Shown in pieces: positions 12,119-38,143 of a stretch of DNA of 64,000 nucleotides. The notes beneath the pieces are model-generated. The model ran no database searches, had not been told where the DNA came from, and worked only from the letters and a program-made list of their open reading frames with translations. Numbering within the stretch: the stretch's first letter is position 1; every line of letters starts with the position of its first letter. Made by a program: the position numbers and the translations under genes. The stretch comes from an uncultured Actinomycetes bacterium. GTDB taxonomy: Bacteria; Actinomycetota; UBA4738; HRBIN12. The stretch spans positions 128,552 through 192,551 of the forward strand of contig CAVTGO010000013.1 in the NCBI GenBank assembly GCA_963734275.1, given 5' to 3'.

Positions 12119-12142
12119 GCAGCTGGTGAGCCCCGTCCGCGC

Positions 12143-13510: not shown

Positions 13511-13591
13511 CGGCGAGATGGTCCCACAGGCCGCACTGTAGGCTCCACGTTCCGCCCTCGCGCGTACAGAGCCTTCGGAAAGGCGAAGCGT

Positions 13592-16923: not shown

Positions 16924-16982
16924 GACGGGTTCTCCTCTCGTTCGCTCGTGGAACGCGGGAGCCGCTCGGAATCTTCCGCCGG

Positions 16983-17870: not shown

Positions 17871-17972
17871 GTCCCAACGCTAGCAAGGGTTCCGTGAGGA
17901 CGGGGGGAGCCGGCCGGGACGCGAGACGCGGCAGCTCTGGCCGGGACCACGCGGGAGCCGACGCCCCGCGCT

Positions 17973-17987
17973 GTGACCTCAGGTCAC
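17973..17987. promoter_or_regulatory. perfect inverted repeat GTGACCT-c-AGGTCAC (candidate operator) in the divergent intergenic region upstream of the RACo/MttB operon
   Basis: 7-bp arms, 1-nt spacer. Lies about 100 nt upstream of the GTG start at 18084. Confidence 0.3.
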
Positions 17988-18083
17988 GAACCGCCGTTCC
18001 ACCATCGTTCCTGATAGTGGGACGATCGCCTCGTGAGAGGCGGCCGGACATGACCCTGGGTAAGATGCGGAGGCCGCGCTAAG

Positions 18084-20531
18084 GTGCGCAAGCTCCAGGT
18101 CACCTACCTGCCGAGCGGCAAGACCGCCCACGTCCCCGAGGGGACCACGCTGTTCAACGCGGCTCACTGGGCCGGCCTGCCGATCGAGTCCACCTGCGGG
18201 GGGCGGGGCACGTGCGGCAAGTGCAAGGTCCGCGTCGTCGAGGGCATCCACGAGCCGACGCCGGCGGACCACCGAAAGCTCCCCGGCCAGGAGTTGGACT
18301 CCGGCTGGAGGCTCTCGTGCCAGCTCGCGGTCTCGGTCGACGCGGTGTGCGAGGTGCCGAACCTCCAGGTCACGCCGAAGGCCGCGACGATGGGTGTGGG
18401 GCGGTTCGTCCTGCTCGAGCCCAACGTGCAGAAGGTCCTCGTCGCGGTCGAGCCGCCGTCGCTCGAGGACGCGCGGAGCCACATCCGCCGGCTGCTGGAC
18501 GCGCTCGACGCCGAGGGGCTCGAGCCCACCTTCGGCCCGGCCGTGCTGCCGCGCCTGGCGCTCGCGATGCGCGACGAGCCGACGGAGGTCACCGCCACGA
18601 TCGTCGGGGAGCACCTCGTGGACGTCGAGGCCGGCGACACGAGCGGCACGATGTTCGGCGTCTCGCTCGACATCGGCACGACGACCGTCGTGGCCACCCT
18701 CGTCGACCTCACCACCGGCGCCGCCGCGGCCGTCGAGTCGACGATCAACAGGCAGGCGCCCTTCGGCGCGGACGTCATCGCGCGGATGGGGCACGCGATG
18801 ACCGGCCCCCAGGCGATCGACGACCTCCGCGCCGCGGCCCTCGATACGGTCAACGGGCTCCTCGAGAGCGTGTGCGCGACGGGCGGCGTCGCGCTCGAGG
18901 ACGTCTACGAGGTGGTGGTCGTCGGCAACGCGACGATGCTGCACCTGTTCCTCGGCGTCGACCCGCGCTCGATCGCGCTGTCGCCGTTCGTCGCGACCTT
19001 CCTCGAGCCGCAGGATCTGCGAGCGTCCGAGCTCGGCGTCGAGATCCATCCCGACGGCCGGGTCGCGCTGTTTCCCTCGATCGGAGCCTACGTTGGGGCC
19101 GACATCGTGGGTGACGTCGTGGCGACCGGCCTCGCGCGCGAGGAGGCCGTGCGGCTTCTCGTGGACATCGGCACGAACGGCGAGATCGTGTGCGGCAGCT
19201 CCGAGCGCGCGGTCGCCACCGCCGCGCCCGCGGGCCCGGCGTTCGAGGGCGGCCAGATCCTCCACGGGATGCGGGCCACCGAGGGTGCGATCGAAGGGGT
19301 CGTGCTCGACGAGGACGGGGTGCGCCTGCAGGTGATCGGCGGGGACGTGGCGCCCCGCGGGATCTGCGGGTCCGGCCTGATCGACGCGGTGGCTCAGCTC
19401 CGCCTAGCCGGGCTGTTGAGGGACAACGGGATCCTCCTGTCGCGCGACGAGGCCACGCTCGCGGGGCACCCGCTCGCCGGCCGCCTGGTCGACCGCGACG
19501 GCATCCGGGCGTTCGAGCTCGCCGAGGGCGTCCTCCTCACCCAGCTCGACGTCCGCGAGCTCCAGTCGGCCAAGGGCGCAATCGCGACCGGCATCGAGGT
19601 TGCGATGGACGCTCTCGGCGTCGGGGCGGAGGATCTGGACGAGGTGATGCTGGCCGGGTCCTTCGGGACGTACATCGACCCCGAGAGCGCGCGCGTGCTG
19701 GGGCTCGTGCCGCCGGTCCCGGTCGAGCGGATCCGGGCGGTCGGCAACGCCGCCAGCGAGGGTGCCAAGATGGCCCTCATGTCCTTCCGCGAGCGCGAGG
19801 TGGCGTTCGAGCTCCCGGCGTTCGTCGAGTACCTGGAGCTCTCGGGCGCCCCGGACTTCAACGACCGCTTCATCCGCAACCTCGCGTTCCCCGAGCTCGA
19901 CAAGCGCGGAGCGCGCCGAGTGACCTCCACCGGCGCCTCGGTGGCGTTCATCGCGTGCGGCGCGGTCGCCAAGGACACGGCGGCGATCGTGAAGGAGCGA
20001 GGCTGGAGCGCCGACGTGCACGGCATCTCGAGCGACCTGCACATGACGCCGCTCGACATCGGTCCGGCCGTCGAGGAGAAGCTCCAGGCGTTGCTGCCGA
20101 GGTACGACCGCGTGATCGTCGTCTACGGCGACTGCGGGACCGGCGGACGCCTGGACGCCGTCCTCGAGAAGTACCCGGCGGTCCGTCCGGCGGGGTTCCA
20201 CTGCTTCCAGTGGTACGCCGGCGAGCTGTACCGCCGGTTCGAGGACGACATCGGCATCTACTTCCTCACCGACTGGCTGGTGCAGAACTGGGACCGCGCC
20301 GTGATCCACGGCCTCGGCCTGGACCGCTTCCCGTGGCTGAAGGACGAGTACTTCGGCAACCTCACGCGGATCCTGTTCGTCCGCCAGCATCCCGATCCGG
20401 GGCGCGAGACCCGCGCGCGGGAGATCGCCGAGTGGATGGGCAAGCCGCTCGAGATCCACGACCTCGGAACGAAGCCGCTCGAGGACCTGCTCGTGCCGCT
20501 CATGGAGGAGACCTCGGATGTTCACGCCTGA
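18084..20531 (+). CDS. corrinoid reductive activase (RACo-like: 2Fe-2S ferredoxin + ASKHA ATPase) fused to a C-terminal DUF1638-like domain
   Basis: N-terminal plant-type ferredoxin motif CGGRGTCGKCKV. Central ASKHA-like region (GVSLDIGTTTV..., LVDIGTNGEIV). C-terminal roughly 200 aa (YDRVIVVYGDCGTGG...FLTDWL) resembles DUF1638. GGAGG RBS. Confidence 0.85.
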   Translation: MRKLQVTYLPSGKTAHVPEGTTLFNAAHWAGLPIESTCGGRGTCGKCKVRVVEGIHEPTPADHRKLPGQELDSGWRLSCQLAVSVDAVCEVPNLQVTPKAATMGVGRFVLLEPNVQKVLVAVEPPSLEDARSHIRRLLDALDAEGLEPTFGPAVLPRLALAMRDEPTEVTATIVGEHLVDVEAGDTSGTMFGVSLDIGTTTVVATLVDLTTGAAAAVESTINRQAPFGADVIARMGHAMTGPQAIDDLRAAALDTVNGLLESVCATGGVALEDVYEVVVVGNATMLHLFLGVDPRSIALSPFVATFLEPQDLRASELGVEIHPDGRVALFPSIGAYVGADIVGDVVATGLAREEAVRLLVDIGTNGEIVCGSSERAVATAAPAGPAFEGGQILHGMRATEGAIEGVVLDEDGVRLQVIGGDVAPRGICGSGLIDAVAQLRLAGLLRDNGILLSRDEATLAGHPLAGRLVDRDGIRAFELAEGVLLTQLDVRELQSAKGAIATGIEVAMDALGVGAEDLDEVMLAGSFGTYIDPESARVLGLVPPVPVERIRAVGNAASEGAKMALMSFREREVAFELPAFVEYLELSGAPDFNDRFIRNLAFPELDKRGARRVTSTGASVAFIACGAVAKDTAAIVKERGWSADVHGISSDLHMTPLDIGPAVEEKLQALLPRYDRVIVVYGDCGTGGRLDAVLEKYPAVRPAGFHCFQWYAGELYRRFEDDIGIYFLTDWLVQNWDRAVIHGLGLDRFPWLKDEYFGNLTRILFVRQHPDPGRETRAREIAEWMGKPLEIHDLGTKPLEDLLVPLMEETSDVHA

Positions 20532-21966
20532 GACGGCCCCGGCGGTGCTGTCCGACGAGCAACTCGCCCAGATCCACGAGACCGCCATGCGGATCTGCGA
20601 GGAGATCGGCCTCGACGTCCTGCACGACGGCGCCCGCAAGCTCCTTTCCGAGGCCGGCCTGAAGGTCGACGGCGACCGCGTCCGGTTCGACCGCGGGTTC
20701 GTGGAGGAGCAGGTCGCGAAGGCCCCGGCGTCGTTCGGGCTGCGCGCGCGCAACCCCGAGCGCTCGCTCGAAGTCGGCACCGGCACGCCCGTGTGGATGA
20801 ACGTCGGCGGGCCGCCGTTCGCGAGCGACCTCGACGAGGGGCGCCGCAGCGGCCGCGCGCAGGACCACGACGCCCTCGTGAAGCTCACGCAGGCGACCGC
20901 GGTCCTGAACTGCGTCCAGACCGGTGCGGTCGAGTCGGTCGACCTCGACGTGACCACCCGGCATCTCGACATGGAGTACTCGACGATCCGGTGGTCGGAC
21001 AAGCCGTACGTGACCTACGGGACCAGCGGCCCGAAGGCGCGCGACGGGATCGCGATGGCGGAGATCGTGCACGGCGGGCGCGAGGCGATCGAGCGAACGC
21101 CGGCGCTCATTGGCGTCGTGAACCCGAACAGCCCGCTCGTGTGGGACTTCCGGATGACCGACGCCCTGATCGCGTGGGCCGAGGCCAACCAGCCGGTGAT
21201 CGTGACGCCGTTCCTGCTGGCCGGCGCGACGAGCCCGGTCTCGATGGCGGGCGGGTTCGCCCAGCAGGCCGCCGAGGCCCTCTCGGGCGTGGCGCTGGCG
21301 CAGCTCGTGCGGCCGGGCGCGCCCTGCCTGTACGGATCGTTCTTCACGGTGACCGACATGCGGACCGGCGCGCCGGCATTCGGGACGCCCGAGGGCGTGC
21401 TGGCCGTGCTGGCCGGGGCGCAGATCTCGCGTCGCTACGGGCTGCCGTTCCGCGGCGGCGGCGGGCTCTCGAGCTCGAACGCCGTGGACGCGCAGGCGGC
21501 GGCCGAGACCCAGAACATGCTGTGGGCGACGCTGCTCGCCGGCACCGACGTGGTGCTCCACGCCGCGGGCTGGCTCGAGGGCGGGCTGACCGCCTCGTTC
21601 GAGAAGTTCGCGATGGACGTGGAGCTCCTGTCGCAGTTCCGGCGGATGGGGCAGGGGATCGGGTTCGGCGACGAGGAGCTGGCGTTCGACGCGCTGAAGG
21701 CGCTCGGGCCCGGCGGCCTGTTCCTGGAGTCCGACCACACGATGGCGCACTTCAAGGAGTGGCTCACGATGAGCCCGATCTTCCAGACGCAGGACTTCGC
21801 GACGTGGGAGATGTCGGGCTCGGTCGGGCCGGCGGAGCTCGCCAATGCGCGGTGGAAGGAGCTGCTTGCGTCCTACGAGGACCCCGGGATCGACGGGGCC
21901 GTGGACGAGGAGCTCCGCGCCTACCTCGAGCGCCGCAAGCAGGATCCGCCCGAGGACGAGGACTGA
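20518..21966 (+). CDS. MttB-superfamily methyltransferase, non-pyrrolysine type (quaternary amine:corrinoid methyltransferase, MtgB-like)
   Basis: 482-aa uninterrupted ORF (no in-frame TAG). The TIM-barrel MttB family pattern is present throughout. Start overlaps the RACo gene end. Confidence 0.9.
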   Translation: MFTPETAPAVLSDEQLAQIHETAMRICEEIGLDVLHDGARKLLSEAGLKVDGDRVRFDRGFVEEQVAKAPASFGLRARNPERSLEVGTGTPVWMNVGGPPFASDLDEGRRSGRAQDHDALVKLTQATAVLNCVQTGAVESVDLDVTTRHLDMEYSTIRWSDKPYVTYGTSGPKARDGIAMAEIVHGGREAIERTPALIGVVNPNSPLVWDFRMTDALIAWAEANQPVIVTPFLLAGATSPVSMAGGFAQQAAEALSGVALAQLVRPGAPCLYGSFFTVTDMRTGAPAFGTPEGVLAVLAGAQISRRYGLPFRGGGGLSSSNAVDAQAAAETQNMLWATLLAGTDVVLHAAGWLEGGLTASFEKFAMDVELLSQFRRMGQGIGFGDEELAFDALKALGPGGLFLESDHTMAHFKEWLTMSPIFQTQDFATWEMSGSVGPAELANARWKELLASYEDPGIDGAVDEELRAYLERRKQDPPEDED

Positions 21967-22088
21967 GCGAGCTCTCCTCGCGCCTCGGTTCAGGTGGACG
22001 ATCACCGAGATCGCGACCCCGTTCCGACTTGCCCTGGCAGCCATCGGGGCGGGAGGATGGCCGGGTTCATCGTAGATAGGGGGAGGGT

Positions 22089-22553
22089 ATGCGCGGGAAG
22101 GCGAGGATCATGCTTGCTGCCGCCGGTATCTCGGCGGTCGTCCTGGTGATCTCGTTGATCACCGTATCGAGCGCGGCCACCGTCACGAGGATCCACGTGA
22201 TCGAGCACGCGACGACCGACGTCGTGATCGACACGGACGGTGACGGAGCCGACTCGACAGGAGACCTGCTCACGTTCCACAACGAGCTGTTCGACGCGGA
22301 GAACGGCGTGGTCGTCGGCACCAATCAGGGCGACTGCATCCGTATCGAGGTCGGCGTGAGCTGGGAATGCCGGTTCGTGAACTTCCTCGAGGGCGGCTCG
22401 ATCACGGTGGAAGGGCCGTTCCTGGATGCCGGGCCCTCGACCTTCGCTATCACCGGAGGGACCGGTGTCTTCCGCGACGCCGGGGGAACGATGCGCCTGA
22501 TCTCGAACGAGGACGGCACCGAGTTCGACTTCATCTTCCGGGTCATCCGGTAG
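22089..22553 (+). CDS. secreted allene-oxide-cyclase/dirigent-like beta-barrel protein, hypothetical
   Basis: N-terminal signal-anchor MRGKARIMLAAAGISAVVLV. ITGGTGVFRDAGG motif typical of AOC-barrel-like proteins. GGGGGAGGG RBS. Confidence 0.55.
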   Translation: MRGKARIMLAAAGISAVVLVISLITVSSAATVTRIHVIEHATTDVVIDTDGDGADSTGDLLTFHNELFDAENGVVVGTNQGDCIRIEVGVSWECRFVNFLEGGSITVEGPFLDAGPSTFAITGGTGVFRDAGGTMRLISNEDGTEFDFIFRVIR

Positions 22554-22747
22554 TCGCATCCGAGTCGTCGCCCGTCCTGTTGCGATGTTGAGCTTGAGCC
22601 ACGGGGTTCAGCTCGAGGTAACGTCGGCTCGGCGCCTCTTGGCCTGGATTGGGTCCCCTACGCGGACATCTGGTGGGGCATGCTCGCTTGCGCTCTCGAT
22701 CGAAACAGAACAGACTCGCGCTGGTTCGGTCATGGTCGAGCTCGGGT

Positions 22748-23578
22748 ATGGTCGAGGAAGGGGTCGGCGAAGGCGTGGAGCAGCCGCTTCCGGCGGAGCG
22801 TCACCGGCGCATCCAGGAGCTCCTTCGTGACCGTCGCGTCGTCCGCGTGTCGGCCCTCTCCGAGATCATGGGCGTCTCCGAGGTCACGGTCCGGCGCGAC
22901 CTCGAGGCCCTCGAGCGCCGCGGCCTCCTCGAGCGGACGCACGGAGGCGCAGTGCTCACCCAGCGGATGCGAGCTGAGCCCGCCTATCTCGACGCCGCGA
23001 ACAGCAACCCATCGGAGAAGCGGCAGATCGGGCAGACGGCGGCCGGGCTCGTGGAACCGGGGGACGCCGTCTACCTGAACGGCGGAACGACGACCCTCGA
23101 GGTGTTCCGCAATCTCCGCGCCCCGGGCGTTACGGTGATCACGAACCACGTCGGGATCGCGCTCGAGGCACCGGACCACGACATCGACCTCCTTCTCCTC
23201 GGAGGCCACTATCGGGCGCCGAGCAACTCGGTGGTCGGGCCGTTCGCTACCGACGCGCTCCGGCGGACGCACGCGACCAAGGCGTTCATCGGCGTCGAGG
23301 GGATCAGCATGGGCTCCGGTCTCACGACACCGGTCGCCGCCGAGGCGGAGATCGCGCGCGTGATGATCGAGCAGACCCGCGGCCGGGTCGCGGTCGTCGC
23401 CGACCACTCGAAGATCGGGACCGTGGCCGACTTCGTGATCGGACCGCTGGGTCAGGTCGATCGCCTGATCGTGGACGCTGGGATCGGCATGGAGATCCGT
23501 GACCAGTTCGTGGAGGCGGGCGTGGACGTGATCGTCGCCGGGGAGATGGCCGCGCCGGCTGGGGTGGGTCGTGGATAA
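22748..23578 (+). CDS. DeoR/GlpR-family transcriptional regulator
   Basis: N-terminal HTH (RHRRIQELLRDRRVVRVSALSEIMGVSEVTVRRDLEALE) and C-terminal DeoR sugar-binding domain. Confidence 0.8.
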   Translation: MVEEGVGEGVEQPLPAERHRRIQELLRDRRVVRVSALSEIMGVSEVTVRRDLEALERRGLLERTHGGAVLTQRMRAEPAYLDAANSNPSEKRQIGQTAAGLVEPGDAVYLNGGTTTLEVFRNLRAPGVTVITNHVGIALEAPDHDIDLLLLGGHYRAPSNSVVGPFATDALRRTHATKAFIGVEGISMGSGLTTPVAAEAEIARVMIEQTRGRVAVVADHSKIGTVADFVIGPLGQVDRLIVDAGIGMEIRDQFVEAGVDVIVAGEMAAPAGVGRG

Positions 23579-24340
23579 GCGGTCGTTCGAGGCCGAGGCC
23601 GATCGGCTGGTCCGAGGCGCGCGCGCGAATGACATCACGCTCCGCGTGCTCGGAGCGCTCGCGTTCCACCGGCGCTGCCCGAGCCACTCCCACCTACAAG
23701 AGCGCCTGAAGCGCGTCTACACGGACATCGACTTCGGAGGCTACGGGAAACAGGTCCGCCAGATCCGCGGGTTCCTGGTCGCCCAGGGCTACGTCGAGGA
23801 CGAGATGACGTACGTCGAGTCCCAGGGCTCGCGTCTGGTCCTGAACCATCCGGGCATCGGATTGCACATCGACGTGTTCCTCGACAAGCTCGAGTTCTGC
23901 CACACGGTCGACTGGAAGGGCCGACTGGAGCTCGATGACTGGACGATACCGCTCGCCGAGATGCTGCTGCAGAAGATGCAGATCGTCCAGATCAACGAGA
24001 AGGACCTGATCGACACGATCATGCTGCTCCTCGAGTTCCCGCTGACCGAGGACGACAGCGGCGTGAACATCGCGCGCGTCGCTGGTGTGTGCGCGAAGGA
24101 CTGGGGCTGGTGGCGCACGCTCACGATGAACCTCGGCAAGGTTCGGCAGATGGCCGGGCATACGAGCGATCTCGAGCCCGACGAGACAGCGCCGCGTGGC
24201 GGAACAGGTCCACGCCGCCCTCGAGCGGATCGAGAGCGAGCCGAAGTCGCGGGCGATGGAGGATGCGCGCCAAGGTGGGTGACCGCAAGAAGTGGTACCG
24301 AGAGGTGGGTGAGCTGGCCGACCGGGTCCAGGAGCTCTGA
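23571..24340 (+). CDS. hypothetical protein; the C-terminal third appears frameshifted
   Basis: The first roughly 200 aa are protein-like (MDKRSFEAEADRLV...). Beyond about 24170 the reading frame decays and protein-like sequence continues in other frames. Confidence 0.35.
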
Positions 24341-24343
24341 AGC

Positions 24344-25340
24344 GATGCCGCTGTTCAGGAAGGGGAAGCGAGGCGGGCCCGACGCGGCTGTTCTACGCGT
24401 GCGACATCCACGGGTCGGAGCCCACGTACCGCAAGTTCCTGAACGCCGCGAAGTTCTACGAGGTGGACGCCCTCATCTTCGGCGGCGACCTGATGGGCAA
24501 GCTCCTGATCCCGATGGTGCCGACGCGGGTGGGACGTGGCGCGCGCGCCTGCAGGGACAGGACCACCACATCACGAGCGGTGAGGGCATGAAGGAGTTCA
24601 AGCGGACGATGCAGACGCTCGGCTTCTACTGGCAGGAGATGGAGCCCGAGGAGTACGGGACCTACGTGGGAAAGCAGGATCGGATCGACGACCTCTTCGA
24701 CGTCCTGGCCAAGGAGCGCCTGGCTGAGTGGGTCGAACTCGCGGAGGAGCGGCTGGCCGGTACCCACGTCCGCGTCTTCCTGTGCGGGGGCAACGACGAC
24801 ACCGACGAGGTCCTGACCGCCCTGGATGAGGTCCCGCATGATCGGGTCGTGAACGCGGAGAATCGCGCCGTGCCGGTGGACGACGAGCACGTCGTGGTAA
24901 CGATCGGCTACTCGACACCGACGCCGTGGGAGACGCCGCGCGAGAGGACCGAGTCCGAGATCGCCGAGGTCATCGAGAAGGTGATGGCCGAGGTGCCGGA
25001 CCCGTCGCGGGCGGTCTTCAACTTCCATTGCCCGCCGCTGGACTCCGGTCTGGACACGTGCCTGAAGCTCGACGCCTCGGTCTGGCCGCCGACGCCCGTG
25101 CTCGTGAGCGGCCAGCCCGTCTATTACGGCGCCGGCTCCCAGGCGGTGGCCGACGCACTGACGAGCTACCAGCCTACGGTTGGGCTCCACGGCCACATCC
25201 ACGAGTCACGGGGGGTGAACGACTACGGCCGCACGCCCGCGTTCAACCCGGGAAGCGAGTACGGGGAGGGGGTGTTGCGGGGTCTGATCGTGGCGATCCG
25301 AGGAGGAGAGGTCATCGGGCACCAGTTCACGTCCGGGTAG
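24344..25340 (+). pseudogene. metallophosphoesterase (calcineurin-like) disrupted by at least 2 frameshifts
   Basis: MPLFRKGKRG... in one frame, then RLFYACDIHGSEP...GGDLMGK in another, then ...GLHGHIHESRG in a third. Confidence 0.55.
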
Positions 25341-25375
25341 CCCGCACCTGGAGGCGTCGAGCACAAGGAGGGGGG

Positions 25376-27014
25376 ATGGCAGAAGCCGTAGCGCCGCAGG
25401 TCTTCACCCGGCGGGCCTCGGGCCTCGTCCGAGTGATGTCGCCGTACTCGGCGTTCATCTACAACGTCCTGACGATGGGGATCATCTTCCCCTGGACCTA
25501 CGTGTGGGCTCCCACAGCGTTCCAGGGGTCGAACCTCGTCCTCGGCATCGCGTTCGCGTTCGTGTTCGAGCTGCCGATCGCGCTCGCCTACGTGTGGCTC
25601 GCGACCGCGTTGCCGAGCTCGGGCGGGGACTACGTGTTCCAGAGCCGGGTGTTCGGGGGCGGGTTCGGGTTCACGGTGGTGTTCGCGTTCTTCGTCGTCT
25701 GGATCCTGCAGTGGGTGGCGCTGTCGGGATGGCTCCTCGCCGTCCTCGGCATCGCGCCCACGTTCATCGGCCTCGGGGTGACGCTGGAAAACCAGACGCT
25801 GATCAACTGGGGGCGAACGTCGCGACGGCGAACGGGATCATCGTGATCAGCATCCTGAACGCGTTGCGTGTCGCTGGTCGCTGCTCGTGACCGGGTTCCG
25901 GAACTACGTCCGGTTCCAGTACGTGATGTGGTACGCGATCCTTGCCTCGTTCGCCGTGATGCTCCTGCTCTTCTTCACGACGAACCCAGGCGACGCTGCG
26001 GGCGAGGCTGGACGAGTTCGCGCTGGCCACGGGCGGCGCGCCGGACTTCTTCGAGACCGCGAGGGCGGCGGCGGCCGACGCGGGCGTGAACTTCAACCCG
26101 CCGTTCTGGCTCTTCGGGACGCTGATGGTCGCGCCGATCGCGTGGACGAGCCTGCAGTGGGCCACCTACTCAGTCGGAGCAGGGCGGCGAGATCAAGAAC
26201 GCCAACGTGTTCCGCAGCCAGGTCTTCATCATCGTCGGCTCGCTCGCCCTCACCGCGGGGCTCCTGATCCTGCTGGCGCTGGCGATGGGCAAGGGGATCG
26301 GGCAGGACGGGCATCCTGGTCGCGTCCTCCGGCTACTGGTACGGGGTCGCGGAGGCGACGCATCGCGGGGACCTTCATGATGCCCAACCTGATCGCGATC
26401 GGGCTCACGACCAGCCCGATCCTGATCGCGATCATCGGCATCGGGTACATCCTCAACTCGTTCCAGATCGTCTGTAACTGCTACATCGGGACGACGCGGA
26501 TCATGGTGGCGCAGGGGCTGGACGGGTTGCTGCCGGACTGGTTCGCACGGGTGCATCCGCGGTGGAAGACACCGGTGAACGCGCACATCGCCTACTTCCT
26601 GGCGGCGATCCCGGTGATCTGGGGCTACAACAAGATCGGGAGTGGGTGCGGTGGACGCTCGGCGTCACGTTCGCGAACGGCGCGGTGATGACGCTCTCTG
26701 CGCTGGCGGCGGCGCTCCTGCCGTACCGGGCGGCCAAGCTCTACGAGGCGTCGCCGGGGGCGCAGTACAAGGTCGGCAACACGCCGATGGTGACCGTGTT
26801 CGGGGCGCTCGGGTTCCTGTTCGGGGCCTTCATGGTGGGGTCGTTCCTGTTCGTGGAGGACCTCGGCCTGGCGTCCTCGAACGACGCCGTTCCCGTACTA
26901 CATCGTCCTGGGAACGGCGGTGTTCGGGCTGCTCGTGTACTGGTGATGCGGCAGGTCCGGGCGAGCGCCGGCCTCAAGGTCGAGTACGCGTTCCGGGAGA
27001 TCCCGCCGGAGTAG
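25376..27014 (+). pseudogene. APC-family amino acid/polyamine permease disrupted by at least 3 frameshifts
   Basis: TM-rich permease segments spread over ORFs 24926..25846, 25887..26267, 26086..26688 and 26562..27014 in three frames. AAGGAGGGGGG RBS before the ATG at 25376. Confidence 0.6.
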
Positions 27015-27084
27015 CGGGTAGCCGGACGCGGTGGTGGTGGGGCGGGGCCGTTGGCCCCGCCCCATCCGTCTCCGGGAGGGCTCG

Positions 27085-29535
27085 GTGACCGAACGGGTCC
27101 GCGCGGTCGTGATCGGCGGCGGCGTCGCCGGGTGCAGCGTCGCGCTGCACCTGGCTAAGGCCGGGCTGGACCGACGTGCTCCTGTTGGACAAGGGCGAGC
27201 TGACGAGCGGGTCCACGGCGCACGCGGCCGGGTTCGTCACGATGTTCAACCCCTCGCCGACGATGATGCGCGTTCCGCCGCTACTCGATCGAGCTGTACC
27301 GCGAGCTCGGGGTGTTCGAGACGGTCGGGAGCCTGCGGATCGCCTCGAGCGCCGAGTAGCTGCTAGAGCTGCAACGCGGGGTGTCCCGCGCGCGAGGGAT
27401 CGGCCTCGACGTCGAGCTCTGTCGGGCCCGACGAGACGCTGAGGCTGATGCCGGCGGCGAGCGCCGAGTCGCTCTTCGGGAGCGTCTGGGTGCCCGGCGA
27501 CGGCTTCCTCGACCCGCACACCGCGACGTACGCGCTCGCGGCGGCCGCGCGCGCGCTCGGGCGGCACGATCCGGACGGGAGCGCGCGTGACGGCGATCGA
27601 GCTCTCCGAGCGGCGGGAGGTGACCGCGATTGTCGTCGACGGCGAGCGGATCGAGTGCGAGGTCGTCGTGGACGCCGCCGGGATCTGGGCGCCGCGGGTC
27701 GCGGCGATGGTCGGGGCTCCGGGTCCCGTCGACGCCGGTCGACCACCAGCACATCGCGCTGAAGGCGGTGCCGGGGGTCGGAGCTGCCGCGCGACATGCC
27801 GTGCTTCCGCGACCCGGACAACCTCGTCTACGGGAAGTCCGAGGCCGGCGGCATCGTGTTCGGCGGGTACGAGCCCGATCCGGTCGCTCGATGGATCGAC
27901 GGCGCGCCCTGGGAGCACGGCGGCGCGCTCGCTGCCGCCGGACATGGATCGGTTCGAGCAGCTGCTGCGCGGCGCCGCCCGCCGGTTCCCCTTCATCGAG
28001 GACGCCGAGATCGTGAAGCTCGTCTGCCATCCCGACGCGATGACGCCCGACGCGAACCCGCTCGTCGGCCCGATCGCCGACGGTCCGCGGGCCTGTGGCT
28101 CGCGGCCGGGCTGTCGCTGAACGGCTTCGGTGGGGCCGGCGGGCTCGGCAAGGCGCTCGCCGAGTGGATCACGGCCGGCGAGACCGAGCTCGACCTCACC
28201 GCCGTACCGGCCGTGGCGGTTCGGGCGCGTGCACGAGGACGCCGGCTGGGTCGCGCGAGCTGGCGCGCGAGGCCTATCGCTACTACTACCTCCTGCGCTA
28301 TCCGTTCGATCACGACGAGTGGGGACGGCCGAAGCGCGTGTCGCCGCTGCACGGCCGGCTCCAGGAGCCGGCGCCGTGTTCCAGGCGAAGAACGGGTGGG
28401 AGCGCGCCGAGCGCTTCGAGCCGGGCGAGGCCGTGGCGGCGGGCCGGGCGCGGATCAGCGGGCGTTCGGGTGGGCGCGGCCGCCGTGGCTCGACCGGGTG
28501 GGCGAGGAGCATCGCGCGCGTCCGCGAGCGCGCCGGGTCTGTCGACCTGTCAGCTCGTTCGGGAAGATCGAGGTGGCCGGGCCGGACGCGCTCCGGCTGC
28601 TCGAACGGGCGGCGGCGAACCGCGTCGACCGGCCGGTGGGCTCGATCGTCTACTCGCCAGTTCCTCGATCGGCGGGGCGGGATCGTCGGCCGACGTCACG
28701 ATCGTCCGGCTCGCCGAGGACGGTTCCGCGTGGTCACCGGCGTCGGGCGACCGTCGACGGCGACCTCGGCTGGCTGCGGATGCACGTGCGTGACGGAGAC
28801 GGGCGCCGTCGAGCTCCGGGACGCGAGCGAGGAGCTCGCCGTGATCGCACTCTGGGGTCCGGCCGCTCGCGACGTCCTCGGCGGCGACGACCGAGGACGA
28901 CGTGTCGAACGAGGCCTTCCCGACCTGAGCGGCGCGAGCGCTGCGGATCGGTGCCGCGCCGGTACTGGGCCCAGCGGATCAGCTACGCCGGCGAGGCTCG
29001 GCTGGGAGCTGTGGGTCGAGCCGGCGGTGGGCGGTCCAGGCCTGGGACCGGCTGTGCGGCGGCGGGCGAACCGCTCGGTCTCGAGCCGTGCGGGTACCGG
29101 GCCTCGACGGCCTGCGCATCGAGCAGGGGTTCCGGTACCTCGGGACCGACCTCACCGCGGGCGACACGCCCGACGAGGCGGGGCTTGGCCTTCGTCGCGT
29201 TCGATCCCTCGAAGGACTTCGTCGGGCGCGACGCCGTCTTCGCCGCGCGCGAGGCGGGGCCGCCGACGCGGCGGCTGCGGACCCTGCTCGTTGGCGCAGG
29301 CTACGTCACGGCCTACGGGGGAGAGGCGGTGCACGCCGGCGACGAGGTGGTCGGGCGGGTGCGGAGCGTGCGCGTACGGCTACACCGTCGGACCGGAAGG
29401 TCGCGACTCGCCTACCTGCCGTCGGCCCTCGGCCCCGGCGATCGCGTGGAGGTGGAGGTGTTCGGCGAGCTGGTTCCGGCCGAGGTGGCCGAGGACGTCC
29501 TGGTGGATCCCGAGGGCAAGCGAGTGCGGAGCTGA
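27085..29535 (+). pseudogene. dimethylglycine dehydrogenase/oxidase-like (FAD oxidoreductase + GcvT-type folate domain), heavily frameshifted paralog of 30781..33214
   Basis: FAD motif VIGGGVAGCSVALHLAKAG, then LLDKGELTSGSTAHAAGF in the next frame; the GcvT-like C-terminus (FVGRDAVF..., ...VDPEGKRVRS) sits in further frames. Many single-nucleotide indels. Confidence 0.65.
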
Positions 29536-30444
29536 TGCCGACGATCGAGCAGGTCGTCCAGGCCGCGGCGACCTTCCGCGGCCGGCAGGTCGAGGTCTCC
29601 GAGCTCTCGGGCGGTCTCACCAACACGAACTACCTGGTGGATCGCCGACGGCGCGAAGTACGTGGTCCGCATCCCCGGACGCTCGACCGAGCTGCTCGCC
29701 GTCGACCGCGCGAACGAGCGCCACAACGCCGAGGCGGCGTCCACGACCGGGGTGTCGCCTCGGATCGTCGAGGTGCTCGAGGACGTGGAACGTGATGATC
29801 ATGGAGTTCATCGAGGGGCAGACGATGTCGGCGGAGACGCTCCGCGCGCCCGAGCAGGTGCGCCGGATCGCGGCGTCGCTCCGGACGCTGCACGCCGCGC
29901 CGCGGTTCGCTGAAGGACTTCGACATGTTCCGGTTGACCGAGTTCTACCTGGGCGTCTGCGCCGAGCGCTCGGTCCGGATCCCCGACGGGTTCCGAGACC
30001 GCATGCCGACGACGTGGCCGATGATCGAGCGCGCGCTCGCCGCGAACCCCGTGGAGACCGTGCCCTGCCACAACGACCTGCTCGCCGAGAACTACATCGA
30101 CGACGGGTCGCAGCTGTGGATCGTCGACTTCGAGTACAGCGGGAACAACGACCCGTGCTTCGAGCTCGGCGACACCGCGCAGGAGTGCGGGTTCGACCAG
30201 GAGCTGCGGGCGGTGCTGTGCGAGGCCTACTTCGGCACGCGCCGCGAGGACCGGCTGGCGCGGATGGACCTTCAGGCGCGTGATGGCGGACGTCGGATGG
30301 ACCCTGTGGGCCGCGATCCAGGCCACGATCTCCACGATCGACTTCGACTTCTGGGGCTGGGCGGTGGAGCGGTGGGACCGGGCGGTGGCTGTCTTCGACT
30401 CGGACGACTTCGCTCGCTGGGTCCGCGCGTCGGCGGGAGGTTGA
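29535..30444 (+). pseudogene. APH/choline-kinase-family phosphotransferase, frameshifted paralog of 33217..34131
   Basis: SGGLTNTNYLV, CHNDLLAENYI and IVDFEYSGNNDPCFELG motifs lie in different frames. At least 4 frame changes. Confidence 0.6.
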
Positions 30445-30475
30445 CGCATCCGCGCCCGCGTCCGAGGGTGATGGC

Positions 30476-30775
30476 GTGCGCGTGATCGCGACCGGCGAGG
30501 CGGTCGAGTTCGTCCGCGACCACGGCGGGCGGGTGTTCGTCTGGCCCGTCGTGATGGATGTGCCCTCCGGCGGCGCCGTCGTCTTCACCTTGGAGGCGTC
30601 CACCGAGTCGCCGGGCGCGGCGCACGAGTTCGTTCGGTTCGGCGGCGAGGGGTTCGACGTGCTGATCGACGCGACGGGTCACGGCGTCCCCGATGAGCTG
30701 CACCTCGCGATCAAGGGCTGGCGCCGGAGGCAGATCCGCGCCTACTGGAACGGTAACTCGTTCGGCCGAGCCTGA
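30476..30775 (+). CDS. hypothetical small protein (99 aa)
   Basis: Intact ORF with GTG start and protein-like composition, between the two convergent modules. Confidence 0.35.
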   Translation: MRVIATGEAVEFVRDHGGRVFVWPVVMDVPSGGAVVFTLEASTESPGAAHEFVRFGGEGFDVLIDATGHGVPDELHLAIKGWRRRQIRAYWNGNSFGRA

Positions 30776-30780
30776 GCAGG

Positions 30781-33214
30781 TCAGACGCGGATCCGCTCGC
30801 CCTTCGGGTCGTAGAGCGGGTCGTCGACGACGACGGCGCCCACGAGCTCGCCGAAGACGTCGACCGTCAGTCGCGTTCCCGAGGCGGCGAGCTCGGCCGG
30901 GAGGTAGGCGAACGCGATGCTCTGGCCGATCGCGTAGCCGATCCCCCCGCTCGTCACGCGCGAGACCACCCGGTCTCCGCTGCGAACCGGCTCGTTGCCG
31001 AGGGCCATCGCGGTGGCACCGGCGAGGGTCAGGCACCGCAGGGACCTCGATACGCCGCCCTCCCGCTGGGTCTCGAGCGCCTCGCGGCCGACGAACGCTC
31101 GGTCGTCCCACGCGACGGCGAACCCGAGACCGGCCTCGAGCGGCGTGTCGTCGGCCGTGACGTCCGAACCCCACGCGCGGTAGCCCTTCTCCAGCCGCAG
31201 GGAGTCGATCGCCCGGTAGCCGGCCGGGACCAGCCCGTGCGGCGTGCCGGCCTCGACCAGCGTGTCCCAGAGCGCGGCCCCGAACTCGGCCGGCGGGTAC
31301 AGCTCCCAACCGAGCTCGCCCACGTAGGTCACCCGGAGCGCGAGGCACGGGACGTCGCCCACGGTGATCTCGCGCGCGGTCATGTACGGGAACGCCTCGT
31401 TCGACAGGTCGTCGGCGCACGCGGCGGAGAGGATCTCCCGGGCCTTCGGGCCCCACATGCCCAGGCAGGCGAGCGCGGACGTGACGTCGCGGAGCTCGAC
31501 GCCCGGATCGTCCTCCCGCCTGCGTTTCTGCAGCCACGCCAGGTCGTGGTTCCCCGAGGCCGTGCCGGTGACGATCCGGTACCGATCCTCGGTCCAGGCG
31601 CGTGACCGTGACGTCGGCCTCGATGCCGCCGCGGCGGTTCAACATCTGCGTGTAGACGACGCTGCCGAGCGGCCGGTCGACGTCGTTCGCGCAGACCCGC
31701 CGCAGGAATGTCGTTGCTCCCGGGCCGGACACCTCGAGCTTCGCGAAGCTCGACTCGTCGAACAGCCCTGCCGCCTCTCGGGTCGCGAGGTGTTCGGCCG
31801 GGATCGCGGTCGACCAGTGCTCCCCCGCCCATCCTCGCGGTCGCAGGTCCTCGAAACGCTCGTCCTCGTTGGTGGCGAACCAGTTCGCCCGTTCCCACCC
31901 CGCCTTCTCGCCGAACTCGGCGCCGAGCGCCTGCAGCCGCGCGTACGTGGGGGATGTCTTCAGCGGCCGACCCGCCTTCGACTCCTCTCCTGGGTACCGG
32001 ACGTCGTAGTGCGTCGAGTAGATCTCGTACGCCTTGGCGAGCGCGTAGTCGCGGTCACGGTACGCGGGGCCGAACCGCCGGACGTCCATCTTCGACAGGT
32101 CCATCGAGGGCTCGCCCTCGACGATCCACTCGGCGGTGGAGCGGCCCACCCCCGCGGCTCCGGTGATGCCGTGTGCGCAGAACCCCGCGGCCACGAACAG
32201 GCCCGAGACCTCGGTCTCGCCGAGGATGAAGTCGTCGTCGGGCGTGAAGGCCTCGGGGCCGTTGATGAAGCGGTTGACCTCCACGGTCTGCAGCGACGGG
32301 ATCAGCGCGAACGCGCCCTCGGCGATCGCCTCGAACCGCGGCCACTTCTCCTCCAGCAGGCGGTGGTTGAAGTCCTGCGGGATCGGCGTGTGGACGTTCC
32401 AGGGATCCGGGTTCCGCTCGTAGCCGCCGACGACCAGACCGCCCACCTCCTCTCGCACGTAGACGAGGCGGTCGGGGTCGCGGAGCGTCGGGAAGTCGGG
32501 CCTGACACCCTCGATCGGGCGGGTGATCAGATACTGGTGCTCCATCGGGACGACGGGGATCTCCACACCGGCCATGCGCCCGAGCTCGTTGGCCCACAGG
32601 CCTCCCGCGATCACCACCACCTCGGCCTCGATGCGACCGTGGTCGGTGACGGCGCCGGTCACGCGGCCGCCTTCGACCGGGATCTCCACGACCCGGACGC
32701 CGGGACGGATCCGTGCGCCGCGCGACCTGGCGCCTTCGGTGAAGGCCGACGTGAGACCCGAGGGGTCCAGGTGCCCGTCCGTCGGGACGAACGCGGCGCC
32801 CAACACGTCCGTGCGGTCGATCAGCGGGAAGCGGTCGTGCGCCTGCGCCGCAGAGACGATCTCGATCGGCAGGCCGAACGACTCGGCCCATCCGGCCATG
32901 CGCGCGAGCGCCTCGAGCCGGTAGGCCGAGGTCGCGAGGTGCAGGGTTCCCACCTGGTGCCAGCCTGGGTCGACGCCGGTCTCCTCGTGCAGGCGGGGAT
33001 ACAGGTCGACGCCGTACATCATCATCCGCGTGTGGCTGACCGAGTTCCGCAGCTGCGCGACCAGGCCTGCCGAATGGAACGTCGAGCCGCTCGTGAGCTC
33101 GGAGCGCTCAACGAGCACGACGTCGGTCCAGCCGAGCTGCGTGAGGTGGTAGGCGATGCTGGCACCGGCGACGCCTCCGCCGACGATAACGACGCGCGCG
33201 CGATCCTCGGCCAC
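30781..33214 (-). CDS. dimethylglycine dehydrogenase/oxidase-like bifunctional FAD oxidoreductase + aminomethyltransferase domain; one apparent +1 frameshift near 31585-31595 (possible pseudogene or sequencing error)
   Basis: N-terminus VVIVGGGVAGASIAYH...TSGSTFHSAGL; C-terminus (ORF 30781..31458) is GcvT-like. The frames join if one C is removed from gaccgagg: ...VTRLDEDRYRIVTGTASGNHDLAW.... Confidence 0.7.
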
Positions 33215-33216
33215 GG

Positions 33217-34131
33217 CTAGAGGCCGGCCGCGGCGTCGGTCAGCCAGCGCTCGAACCGCTCGTCGGCCATCGTGCGGGCCAACCGGTCGAAATGGGTCTG
33301 CGCGTACGCCACGTAGTCGATCTCCAGGCTGGACAGGCCCTGCTGCACGACGCCCCACATCGCCTCGCGGAAGTCCGACATGACCCGCATCAGCCGCAGG
33401 CGGGCGCGGTGACCGTCGTGCACGTCGCCGAAGTAGAGACGGAGCATCGACTCCTGCGACTCCTCGGACAGGTCGTTGTTGATCGACAGGTTGCCGAGGT
33501 CGAAGAACGGGTCGCCCATCCCGGCGTACTCGTAGTCGACGAGCCACAGGTGTCCCTCGCCCCGCAGGAAGTTGTCCGAGAGCAGGTCGTTGTGACACGG
33601 GTGGACGGGCCGGGGCGTCCGGTTCAGCGCCTGCTCGATCCGCGAAGCGCGCGCCTGCGCATGGTCGAAGTCGGATGGCACGGCGACGTCCCGCTCGAGC
33701 GAGACCCGCCGGTAGTCCTCGACGATCCGGAAGCTGTCGAACGTCCAGTCGAGCTCGGGTCCGGAGTGGATCGTTCGGACGACGGCGACGACGTCGGCGA
33801 GCACGGCCTCGTCGTCCATGTCGCCTTCGGCGAGGGGCAGGCCCGGCACCCACCGTGTGACGAGGCACCCGAGCTCGGGCAGGTGCGCGATGACCTCGGG
33901 GGCGACGCCCGCCTCGGCGGCCGCGGATGCGGCCCGGTGCTCGGCGGTCCGGTCGATCCCGAGCAATTGCGTGTCCTTGCCCGGCAGGCGGAGGAAGAAG
34001 GTCTCGTGCCCGATCTCCACGAGGAAGTTCCGGTTGGTGCGTCCGGCCTCGATGGGCACGACACGCGTCTCGAGACCCGACCAGCCCGGAACCGCGTCGA
34101 TCGCCCGTGACACGTCCGGGTCGAGGTCCAC
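33217..34131 (-). CDS. APH/choline-ethanolamine-kinase-family phosphotransferase
   Basis: Intact 304 aa with Brenner motif HPCHNDLLSDNFL and LVDYEYAGMGDPFFDLG. GTG start; the stop lies 2 nt before the downstream DMGDH-like start. Confidence 0.8.
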   Translation of the reverse strand: MDLDPDVSRAIDAVPGWSGLETRVVPIEAGRTNRNFLVEIGHETFFLRLPGKDTQLLGIDRTAEHRAASAAAEAGVAPEVIAHLPELGCLVTRWVPGLPLAEGDMDDEAVLADVVAVVRTIHSGPELDWTFDSFRIVEDYRRVSLERDVAVPSDFDHAQARASRIEQALNRTPRPVHPCHNDLLSDNFLRGEGHLWLVDYEYAGMGDPFFDLGNLSINNDLSEESQESMLRLYFGDVHDGHRARLRLMRVMSDFREAMWGVVQQGLSSLEIDYVAYAQTHFDRLARTMADERFERWLTDAAAGL

Positions 34132-34274
34132 GACCCCGAACGGTACCTCGGGCGTTCGTTCCTGGTCAATCTCGACCGAACGCGTGCGTTCATTGCCCCG
34201 TCGCCTGTTCGTCCCTGACCGGATGCCGGCCCGACGGTTGACAGGCGCAAGCTCGCCGCTACACTCGACGGACC

Positions 34275-34325
34275 ATGACGAGGAAGAACTTCACCGAGCC
34301 GCTGGTCCTCGTACTTATCCGGTAG
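34275..34325 (+). CDS. ilvB leader peptide (MTRKNFTEPLVLVLIR), candidate attenuation sensor
   Basis: 16-codon ORF ending in six consecutive Leu/Val/Ile codons, directly upstream of a terminator hairpin and the ilv operon. Confidence 0.5.
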   Translation: MTRKNFTEPLVLVLIR

Positions 34326-34364
34326 GCGCGGCCGGGCCCAGGAGGCCCGGGACCCGCGCCGGAT

Positions 34365-34389
34365 GCCCCTCGCTCGCGGGGGGCTTTTT
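34365..34389 (+). terminator. attenuator: intrinsic terminator hairpin (GCCCCUCG-CUCG-CGGGGGGC) followed by UUUUU
   Basis: 8-bp GC-rich stem with tetraloop plus T5 run. An alternative upstream pairing region gcgcggccgggcc/ggcccgggacccgcgc at 34326..34360 could act as antiterminator. Confidence 0.5.
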
Positions 34390-34467
34390 CTACCCCACCG
34401 ATCACCGTCGCTGCGACCCGGGGCCAACGAAGGGCAACGGAAGGCGAGAAGGAAGGAAGGAGACGAG

Positions 34468-34791
34468 ATGCGCTACGAGTTCGAGCGTGACGGGCACCGG
34501 GTGGCGAGCGTGCTCTGGGAGGGCCCCGGTCAGGTCACCGTGGACGTCTCCGAGGCCTCCGATCGCCCGCAGTTCGACCGGTTCTTCGGCTCCGAGGTCG
34601 TCTACCTGTCGGCCGACATGGACTTCGGGGGTGGCTTGGGCGAAGGCGGGCTGGCCTCGCGGCGGCGCGACTGGTCGCCGTGGGAGTTCGAGCGCCACGC
34701 GCGCAACCTCGCGCATCGCCTGGGCTGCACGCTCCGCCGGGTGGAGACCGGGCCCGTCGAGGAGCGTCCCGCGGGTGTGGGGTCCCGATGA
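34468..34791 (+). CDS. hypothetical protein (107 aa), translationally coupled to ilvB
   Basis: Strong RBS GGAAGGAGA. Its stop overlaps the ilvB ATG (ATGA at 34788..34791). Confidence 0.5.
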
Positions 34792-36536
34792 AGGTCACGG
34801 GCGCGCAGGCGCTCTTCAAGTCCCTCGAAGGCGAGGGAGTGGACATCGTGTTCGGGATCCCGGGAGGAGCGATCCTCCCCGCGTACGACCCGCTGCTCGA
34901 ATCCAGTGTCCGCCACGTTCTCTGTCGCCACGAGCAGGGTGCCGGCCACGCGGCCGAGGGCTACGCATGGGCCACAGGAAAGGTCGGCGTCGCGATCGCG
35001 ACGAGTGGTCCCGGCGGCTGCAACCTGGTCACCGCGCTCGCCGACGCGAAGATGGATTCGGTGCCGATCGTGGCGATCACCGGCCAGGTCCCGACGCCCG
35101 TCGTCGGCAACGACGCGTTCCAGGAGGCCGATATCACCGGCATCACGATGCCGATCACCAAGCACAACTTCCTGGTGAAGGACGCCAACGAGCTGGCCGA
35201 GACGATCCGCGAGGCCTTCCACATCGCCTCCACCGGGCGTCCGGGTCCCGTGCTCGTAGACATCCCGAAGGACGTCCAGCTCCAAGAGATCACCTGGCAC
35301 TGGCCCGACTCGGTGGATCTGCCCGGCTACAAGCCGACCACGAAGGGCAACCTGAAGCAGGTCCGGACGGCCGCGAAGATGATCATGGAGTCGACGCGGC
35401 CCGTGCTGTACGTGGGCGGCGGCGTGATCAAGGCGAACGCCAGCAAGGAGCTGTTCAAGCTCGCGACCGATGGCCACCTGCCTGTCACGACCACGCTCAT
35501 GGCGCGCGGCGCCTTCCCCGACACGCACGAGCTCGCGCTGGGCATGCCCGGGATGCACGGCGCGTACACGGCGGTCACCGCGATGCAGAAGGCGGACCTG
35601 CTGGTCGCACTCGGGGCGCGGTTCGACGACCGCGTCACGGGTCAGCTCTCGAGTTTCGCGCTCGGCGCGAAGATCATCCACGTCGACGTGGACCCGGCCG
35701 AGATCGGGAAGAACCGCACGGCCGACGTCCCGATCGTGGGCGACGCGAAGGACGTGATCGCCAAGCTCCATGCCGAGCTGAAGCGCCTGCAGGAGGAGGC
35801 GGGCGGCGAGCCTGATCGAGCCGCGTGGCACGCGCAGCTCGAGAAATGGAAGACGACCTACCCGTACCGCTACGACCAGCCGGCCGACGGCCCGCTGAAG
35901 CCGCAGTTCGCGATCGAGCGCCTGTACGAGCACACGAAGGGTGACGCGGTCGTCGTGGCCGGCGTCGGCCAGCACCAGATGTGGGCGTCGCAGTTCTGGA
36001 AGTTCACGGAGCCGCGCACCTGGGTGAACTCGGGTGGCCTCGGGACGATGGGGTTCGCCGTCCCGGCGGCGCTCGGCGTGAAGGCCGGCGTGCCCGACCG
36101 TCGCGTCATCGCGATCGACGGCGACGGGTGCTTCCAGATGACCTGTCAGGAGCTCGCGACCTCGACGGCAGAGGGCATCCCGTTCATCACGGCCATCATC
36201 AACAACGCGCACCTCGGGATGGTCCGCCAATGGCAGGAGCTGTTCTACGAGGAGCGGTACTCGCAGGTGTACCTGTCCTACGACGTCCCCGACTACGTGA
36301 AGCTCGCCGAGGCGTACGGGGCGGTCGGCCTTCGCGCCGAGCATCCGGACGAGGTCGACGCCGTGATCGACAAGGCGCTCTCGATCGAGGACCGCAGCGT
36401 CGTGATCGACTTCCGGGTCGACGCGAAGGAGATGTGCTTCCCGATGGTCCCGGCCGGCGCCAGCAACGACGACATCATCGTCGGGCCCGAGGGCCTGAAG
36501 CGCGTCAACGATCCGGCGGAGGCACCGGTCGCATGA
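34788..36536 (+). CDS. ilvB: acetolactate synthase, large (catalytic) subunit
   Basis: TPP enzyme with [19 protein letters not shown] and ...GLGTMGF... motifs. 583 aa. Confidence 0.95.
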
Positions 36537-37129: not shown

Positions 37130-38143
37130 ATGGCAACCATCTACCACGAGAACGACACGGACCCCTCGGCGCTGTCCGGCCAGGCGATCGCCGTCGTCGG
37201 CTTCGGGAGCCAGGGGCATGCGCACGCGCAGAACCTGAAGGATTCCGGGTTCGATGTCCGAGTGGGTCTGCGCGAGGGGTCGCAGAGCCGGGCGAGGGCG
37301 GAGGAGGCCGGGCTCGCGGTCAAGCCGGTCGCCGAGGCGGCGGCGGAGGCGGACGTGGTGATGATCCTGCTGCCCGACACCTCGCACGCGAAGGTCTACG
37401 CCGAGGAGGTGGCTCCGCACCTCGCCTCCGGCGACATGCTGATGTTCGCGCACGGGTTCTCGATCCACTTCGGCACCGTCGTGCCGCCCGCCGACGTGGA
37501 CGTCACGATGATCGCCCCCAAGGGCCCCGGGCACCTGGTCCGCCGGACCTTCACCGAGGGGATCGGGACCCCCGCCATCGTCGCCGTGCAGCAGGACGCC
37601 ACCGGCAAGGCGCTGCAGCGGGCGCTCGCCTACGGCGCCGGGATCGGGGCGGCGCGGGCGGGGATCATCCAGACGACGTTCAAGGAGGAGACCGAGACCG
37701 ACCTGTTCGGCGAGCAATCCGTCTTGTGCGGGGGTCTGTCCACTCTGGTCCAGGCCGGTTTCGAGACGCTCGTCGAGGCCGGGTACCAGCCCGAGATCGC
37801 GTACTTCGAGTGCCTGCACGAGATGAAGCTGATCGTGGACCTCGTCTACGAGGGCGGTCTGTCGTGGATGCGCCACTCGATCAGCGACACGGCCGAGTGG
37901 GGCGACTACCGCAGCGGGCCGCGCGTGATCGACGAAGGTGTGCGGGACCGGATGCGCCAGATCCTTTCGGAGATCCAGGACGGATCCTTCGCCAAGGAGT
38001 GGATCGGGGAAGCCGAGCAGGGATTCCCCCACTTCCTCGCCTTGCGCCGCGAGGCGCGCGCCGCCCAGGTCGAGCGGGTGGGCCGCGAGCTCCGCCGGAT
38101 GATGCCGTGGCTGAACTCCGCGGAGAAGGTGGTCGAGGGATGA
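37130..38143 (+). CDS. ilvC: ketol-acid reductoisomerase
   Basis: 337 aa. NADPH-binding [15 protein letters not shown]. Typical IlvC throughout. Confidence 0.95.

Follow-up and report, generated by a model that had tools for sequence, protein, structure and literature searches.

Clustered single-base indels in a putative methylated-amine catabolic cluster of an uncultured actinomycete: probably a consensus artefact at a strain-variable locus

This article concerns a run of frame-disrupted genes in DNA from an uncultured Actinomycetes bacterium (UBA4738; HRBIN12). The window, by which we mean the whole 64,000-nucleotide (nt) stretch of contig CAVTGO010000013.1 that was analyzed, contains ~70% G+C, and its genes at 23.6–33.2 kb are, judged by their sequences, a conserved and functional-looking catabolic cluster. 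In this cluster, insertions and deletions (indels) of mostly a single base break one gene after another. We consider it very probable that these indels are an artefact of the assembled consensus at a strain-variable locus, and not mutations carried by the organism.

The genes of the locus

Frameshifts were counted by frameshift-aware protein-to-DNA alignment, with intact proteins from a related locus, L001, as guides. This Actinomycetota metagenome-assembled genome (MAG) gave the best of 80 loci in a scan of species-representative genomes with the N-terminus of the permease described hereunder; it is collinear with window positions 22,688–35,731 at ~79% nucleotide identity, and every gene in it is intact. 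A second assembly, L081 (ENA ERZ25039588, contig_58226, 372,560 bp), carries the window's MttB protein exactly and was aligned to window positions 10,518–31,996.

The cluster comprises, in order, a DeoR regulator, a hypothetical gene, a metallophosphoesterase, an APC permease, a dimethylglycine dehydrogenase-like gene (DMGDH-A) with its kinase (kinase-A), a small open reading frame (ORF), and a convergent second pair, DMGDH-B and kinase-B. Protein lengths are in amino acids (aa).

22,775–23,578, + strand: DeoR-family regulator (Pfam HTH_DeoR and DeoRC), intact; the last gene before the disturbed stretch
23,571–24,340, + strand: conserved hypothetical protein of ~254 aa, no Pfam family; 2 net frameshifts
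24,345–25,340, + strand: metallophosphoesterase-like gene, 332 aa in relatives, marginal Metallophos match; 2 net frameshifts
25,376–27,014, + strand: APC-superfamily permease, 544 aa in relatives, AA_permease_2 match; 10 frameshifts
27,085–29,535, + strand: DMGDH-A, in which an FAD oxidoreductase is joined to a folate-binding aminomethyltransferase domain (806 aa in relatives); single-base indels number 32 or more
29,535–30,444, + strand: kinase-A, a choline/ethanolamine-kinase-like APH-family phosphotransferase, 301 aa; 6 frameshifts, at 29,643–30,279
30,476–30,775, + strand: small ORF of 99 aa, intact, no Pfam match; a 99-aa gene lies at the matching place in L081
30,781–33,214, - strand: DMGDH-B, a paralogue of DMGDH-A; one +1 insertion at ~31,594
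33,217–34,131, - strand: kinase-B, APH/choline-kinase-like, 304 aa, intact; the right-hand limit of the disturbed stretch

Pfam searches agree with the gene identities proposed by a first-pass annotation of this DNA, which had been made from the letters alone. The DeoR regulator is 83.8% identical to its L001 orthologue and identical in L081. In the hypothetical gene, the frameshifts lie at ~24,186 and ~24,256 (indel events against L081 at 24,149–24,254), and in the metallophosphoesterase they lie near the 5' end, at ~24,375 and ~24,520. Together, these errors join the two genes into one ORF of 589 aa. The first-pass annotation had taken 23,571–25,340 for a single broken metallophosphoesterase gene; broken it is, but it consists of two genes fused by frameshifts, called in L081 as an intact 254-aa protein and an intact 332-aa protein, the latter also found in L001. 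The hypothetical protein, for all its lack of a Pfam family, is kept in 33 of 34 related loci at 55–74% identity. Frameshifts in the permease span 25,814–26,944, and the gene is intact at 544 aa in both L081 and L001.

DMGDH-A is the most heavily affected gene. Alignment places 30 frameshifts in it, and a compensating -1/+1 pair at ~28,923/28,928 is missed by a net-frame count; even so, 803 of 806 residues align, and the corrected protein matches DAO (2–353 of 353), FAO_M, GCV_T (6–254 of 255) and GCV_T_C (1–80 of 80). The earlier observation that the FAD motif and its continuation sit in adjacent frames at gccgggctgg holds (~27,163–27,166). A TAG at 27,357–27,359 is the sole true in-frame stop in the broken genes. 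The same position reads CAG in L081, L001 and a further locus, L007, and TCG in another, L002. Two alleles mixed in one call may lie behind the TAG, or else an erroneous substitution.

Both kinases score above the curated cut-offs, kinase-A with 96.4 bits for Choline_kinase and 82.7 bits for APH, and kinase-B with 67.4 and 82.2 bits, respectively. DMGDH-B matches DAO, FAO_M, GCV_T and GCV_T_C over nearly the full models. The exact 304-aa kinase-B protein is also on record from a contig of 569,618 bp. As a separate observation, the intact kinase-B is only 54% identical to its L001 orthologue. Eleven orthologues agree throughout on 92 columns, and kinase-B departs from 7 of these (7.6% versus a median of 1.2%); this divergence may reflect fast evolution or a mixed set of orthologues.

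The first-pass annotation had described the disrupted DMGDH-kinase pair as a decayed duplicate, and here it does not hold up. The two DMGDH proteins are 43% identical in amino-acid sequence and the two kinases 31%, and both modules are syntenic in ~20 related loci or MAGs. Because of this divergence and joint conservation, the modules are not a redundant duplicate; they are ancient paralogues, presumably with different substrates, rather than one functional copy and one being lost.

The wider neighbourhood is conserved among uncultured Actinomycetota (window 14,900–34,131; L001 1,224–18,684). One part of it encodes an MttB-family methyltransferase, a B12-binding protein, a pterin-binding protein and RACo, and the rest encodes the DeoR regulator, the hypothetical protein, the phosphoesterase, the APC permease and the two DMGDH-like/choline-kinase-like pairs. 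The permease has homologues of ~70% identity in MAGs of Chloroflexota and Alphaproteobacteria. Taken as a whole, the neighbourhood looks like an uncharacterized methylated-amine pathway in which a kinase is paired with each oxidase.

Extent and spectrum of the frame disruption

The coding frame can be followed along this G+C-rich window by the G+C content of third codon positions (GC3), for which a seven-state Viterbi segmentation was used. Over most of the 64 kb this gives frame segments of 500–3000 nt. Between 24,186 and 30,707, the + strand frame flips every 65–400 nt, and a single - strand flip falls at ~31,591, inside the DMGDH-B gene. Alignment to the L001 proteins yields 51 frameshifts in six genes, 41 of them an extra single base; with the compensating pair in DMGDH-A, the total comes to at least 53 frame-breaking indels between 24,149 and 31,594. 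The density of errors climbs and falls smoothly, with its maximum at 28–29 kb, and the broken genes are full length once their frames are corrected.

Outside this region, each switch of frame coincides with the stop codon of the upstream gene, with the exception of an isolated +1 at 19,899. DeoR, MttB, kinase-B and LeuB are full length, and alignment finds no frameshift in DeoR or kinase-B. The first-pass annotation was therefore correct that the disruption is regional and that each of the four genes it named needs multiple indels to restore its frame, although the disruption is heavier than it had described, and its coordinates were right; so too was its statement that an intact kinase and a near-intact DMGDH paralogue, with its one +1, lie downstream.

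The +1 at 19,899 is an extra G that fuses a RACo-like corrinoid activation gene with a downstream DUF1638 gene into an ORF at 18,054–20,531, a frame of 2.4 kb. These are two separate genes in L081 and L001, where a stop follows "...ERAE", and the insertion is probably an isolated indel error. Farther left, at window position 14,738, one base is missing from an A run (AA in L081, A in the window), in a stretch that GC3 marks as noncoding.

Compared with L081, the window at 23,400–30,500 contains 62 insertions of one base, 3 of two bases and 1 of three bases, together with 29 single-base deletions, and there is no indel longer than 3 nt. Insertions therefore number 66 and deletions 29 (P = 2e-4 for the bias), and the inserted base equals a neighbour in 13 of 62 cases versus 51% expected (P = 1e-6). 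A homopolymer cause was considered and rejected: the sites lie outside long runs, run frequencies equal those of the flanks, and the inserted bases avoid their neighbours. Mira, Ochman and Moran reportedly found in 2001 that in natural bacterial pseudogenes deletions predominate, indel sizes vary widely and slippage takes place at runs of one base. That combination of deletion bias, mixed sizes and base-run slippage was not found in the window.

The insertions, and their avoidance of neighbouring bases, would be explained if the consensus had taken up both alleles of single-nucleotide polymorphisms. A test of this idea was only weakly positive. Insertion slots are distributed over codon positions one to three as 15/20/26, and at third positions beside insertions L001 and L081 disagree in 41% of cases, compared with 30% at control third positions. 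The local density of indel columns rises with divergence from L081 (rho 0.52), and that of frameshifts rises with GC content (rho 0.53); these correlations fail to separate the possible technical causes.

A second assembly, corrected proteins and related loci

The window and L081 are ~99.9% identical over 10,518–23,853 (14 mismatches, 2 indels), and over 16,236–23,853 they are the same apart from the +1 at 19,899. At 23,854 this changes abruptly: 11 mismatches fall within 134 nt, and from there rightward the sequences differ by ~5% substitutions and many indels, the latter setting in ~300 nt past the breakpoint. This marks either a breakpoint of recombination or strain variation, or a switch of strain in one of the assemblies. 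The substitutions to the right of 23,854 are real variation: third codon positions hold more than their share of them, and the amino-acid differences are symmetric and located at variable columns.

The breaks in the window are not reproduced in L081, whose allele here is ~5% divergent. Frameshifts in the hypothetical, phosphoesterase, permease, DMGDH-A and kinase-A genes number 0, 0, 0, 2 and 1 in L081 versus 2, 2, 10, 30 and 6 by the same count in the window. In DMGDH-B the relationship is reversed, with 14 frameshifts (L081 20,259–21,329) in the 1.2 kb that L081 covers versus one in the window. Clusters of frameshifts in different genes of two near-identical assemblies are to be expected from errors but not from a shared biological history.

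In the protein database, no same-species DMGDH-A, kinase-B or LeuB was found beyond those of the window, the best others being 80%, 80% and 89% identical, and a codon-degenerate pattern for the window's DMGDH-A allele had no match in metagenome_contigs. Exact-protein searches with kinase-B (V or M start), the 337-aa ORF at 37,130–38,143 and LeuB matched no contig in an index that lacks the window's own contig, and L081 was the one other same-species sequence that these searches brought to light. As no LeuB of ≥90% identity is on record beyond the window's own, the window contig and contig_58226 seem to differ downstream as well.

Protein-level decay was assessed with alignments of 12–35 orthologues, in which departures of the window were counted at columns where all other sequences agree. 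There were 4 such departures in 242 columns of DMGDH-A, 1 in 243 of the permease, 0 in 111 of kinase-A, 0 in 124 of the phosphoesterase and 1 in 68 of the hypothetical protein. At 0–1.7%, the window falls within the range of intact orthologues, for which medians are 0–1.2% and maxima 3.3–13.9%. Had neutral substitutions accompanied the indels (5 per indel, 95 indels), we estimate that ~29 departures would be present in the 242 columns of DMGDH-A, where 4 were seen (Poisson P = 9e-9).

The comparison with L081 leads to the same answer. Among the 84 amino-acid differences between the two DMGDH-A proteins, both residues occur in orthologues in 59 cases, only the window's residue does in 12, only that of L081 in 12, and neither in 1. 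Neither the invariant columns nor this comparison reveals an excess of amino-acid change at conserved sites in the window. In its substitutions the stretch shows real allelic variation, shaped by purifying selection; the indels alone are abnormal.

Comparison with related loci, a check that the first-pass annotation had itself suggested, shows the orthologues of the broken genes encoded in a single frame in ~30 relatives, and both modules kept in the ~20 relatives mentioned. Across 34 related loci, the short-read-style MAGs (~25) have 0–1 apparent frameshifts per gene, no more than the noise that the method produces at gene ends. Kilobase-scale clusters, mostly of +1 frameshifts and in different genes of the locus, were confined to MAGs that have Flye-style names or are presumed to be long-read. 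L008 (MFD02840.bin.1.414) has 13 in DMGDH-B, 10 of them +1 (L008 15,958–16,904); L021 (MFD09964.bin.2.63) has 10 spread over three genes (L021 11,961–20,438); and L026, a presumed long-read MAG, has 13 in the permease (L026 10,478–11,431). L008 and L021 belong to the MFD long-read MAGs, which were assembled from Nanopore reads only with Flye --meta --nano-hq and one round of Medaka, a polishing step that was motivated by indel errors (PMC12313526).

Explanations and known systems

How might such a sequence arise? We propose that a metagenome assembly made with Flye and Medaka from Nanopore reads alone gave rise to the window, and that the locus is strain-variable, as the fall in identity to L081 from ~99.9% to ~95% at 23,854 suggests. 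If the reads behind the consensus there were too few, or came from more than one haplotype, it would be clean in its substitutions and dirty in its indels. The 50–100 single-base indels are, with high probability, consensus errors, and the six genes intact in the real organism.

Several points weigh against this account. The Nanopore origin of the window is deduced from the size of the source contig, 569,618 bp, and from the Flye-style names of the near-identical contig and of related MAGs; likewise, how deep the coverage is here and whether haplotypes are mixed has been deduced, not seen in reads. L081 has a different allele in this stretch and is not the same sequence. The insertion-biased, non-homopolymeric spectrum is unlike textbook Nanopore consensus error, the idea that both alleles entered the consensus is weakly supported, the dN/dS ratio of the window versus L081 is rather high (0.2–1.0), and the nonsense codon at 27,357 is real.

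The best-placed alternative is a variant of the artefact explanation, not a biological one: a patch of purely low coverage, free of strain mixing, where one or a few reads bridge the stretch and polishing is ineffective. We regard this as possible, if rather doubtful. The smooth rise and fall in error density is what such a patch would give, the bad stretches of L081 and the window are complementary, and the high GC content that frameshift density tracks could lower coverage or base-calling quality. A raw or near-raw read should, however, also bring substitution errors that would fall on invariant residues, which is not what is seen, and the onset of the indels 300 nt after the haplotype breakpoint points to heterogeneity in the population.

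Genuine, ongoing pseudogenization, in which a catabolic island under relaxed selection has acquired real frameshifts, is in our judgement very improbable. It would account for a regional disruption of six adjacent genes in one functional cluster, for the in-frame TAG, and for the adjoining paralogous module. These paralogues, however, are too divergent to be redundant copies, and the window retains invariant residues no less faithfully than intact orthologues do, with no excess of window-specific changes. The indels are of 1–3 nt, run 66:29 towards insertion and avoid homopolymers; flanks that are ~99.9% identical to L081 leave too little time for ~95 indels to have arisen in situ; and L081 and other long-read MAGs have equivalent clusters in other genes of the locus. 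Of the two readings that the first-pass annotation offered, with genuine decay as its headline, the locally low-quality assembly is the one that stands. Decay fails because there is no decay at the level of substitutions, the indel spectrum is unnatural, and a near-identical assembly has the genes mostly intact.

One could also suppose that the indels are real and represent a very recent, local, insertion-biased burst of single-base changes over the catabolic island, which substitutions have yet to follow. To this we give still less credence; if true, it would mean that a novel kind of mutational event had abruptly put a cluster for methylated-amine catabolism out of action. That the frame changes are decoded by programmed frameshifting or recoding, or stem from local insertion-prone hypermutation, is hardly credible at all: it survives only through the conservation of the corrected proteins, with nothing specific in its favour, the more than 50 sites share no slippery motif or homopolymer, orthologues in ~30 relatives are encoded in a single frame (on which ground programmed frameshifting was dismissed), and to our knowledge no system decodes 30 shifts in one gene.

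Returning to the consensus artefact, its implications are practical ones. There is no evidence of gene loss here. Where a locus varies between strains, a long-read MAG can hold pockets of indel errors, kilobases in extent, that look like clustered pseudogenes; caution is therefore advisable. Annotation of this MAG will under-call the six genes of this conserved cluster unless their frames are corrected. Three tests that need no reads suffice to recognize the problem, namely whether invariant residues survive once the frames are corrected, what the indel spectrum looks like, and how a second assembly compares.

It remains to set the locus beside systems that are already known. With respect to function, the corrected DMGDH-A and DMGDH-B share the DAO, FAO_M, GCV_T and GCV_T_C architecture of the family of dimethylglycine dehydrogenase/oxidase, sarcosine dehydrogenase and 4-methylaminobutanoate oxidase, and their database relatives carry these names. 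Unlike the classical betaine-to-glycine route, the genes in the window have as partners kinases of the choline-kinase-like type, along with a phosphoesterase and an APC permease. With respect to disruption, genome decay in Mycobacterium leprae and in recent symbionts likewise leaves several neighbouring genes with multiple frameshifts. The window differs from these in having no large deletions or excess substitutions, one stop, a bias to insertion, and full-length alignment of its proteins.

Collapsed-strain consensus sequences from metaFlye are a closer parallel. Flye merges strains of 97.6–98.65% identity (~98%) into one consensus, and indels lead to frameshifts in Flye metagenome bins (PMC8302730); in the window, identity switches at 23,854 and the indels begin 300 nt later. 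The mixing of haplotypes is here deduced, not observed, and the signature of both alleles is only weakly supported.

Typical residual Nanopore errors are spread genome-wide, tied to homopolymers and inclined towards deletions. Those of the window, by contrast, are packed into ~7.4 kb, avoid homopolymers and are biased to insertion (on the typical residual-error pattern see also, in part, PMC9262707). In its other features, the window resembles the pseudogenes that indel errors create in long-read (Nanopore or PacBio) assemblies: single-base indels split conserved ORFs, conservation of the residues themselves is unaffected, and short-read MAGs of the lineage are clean.

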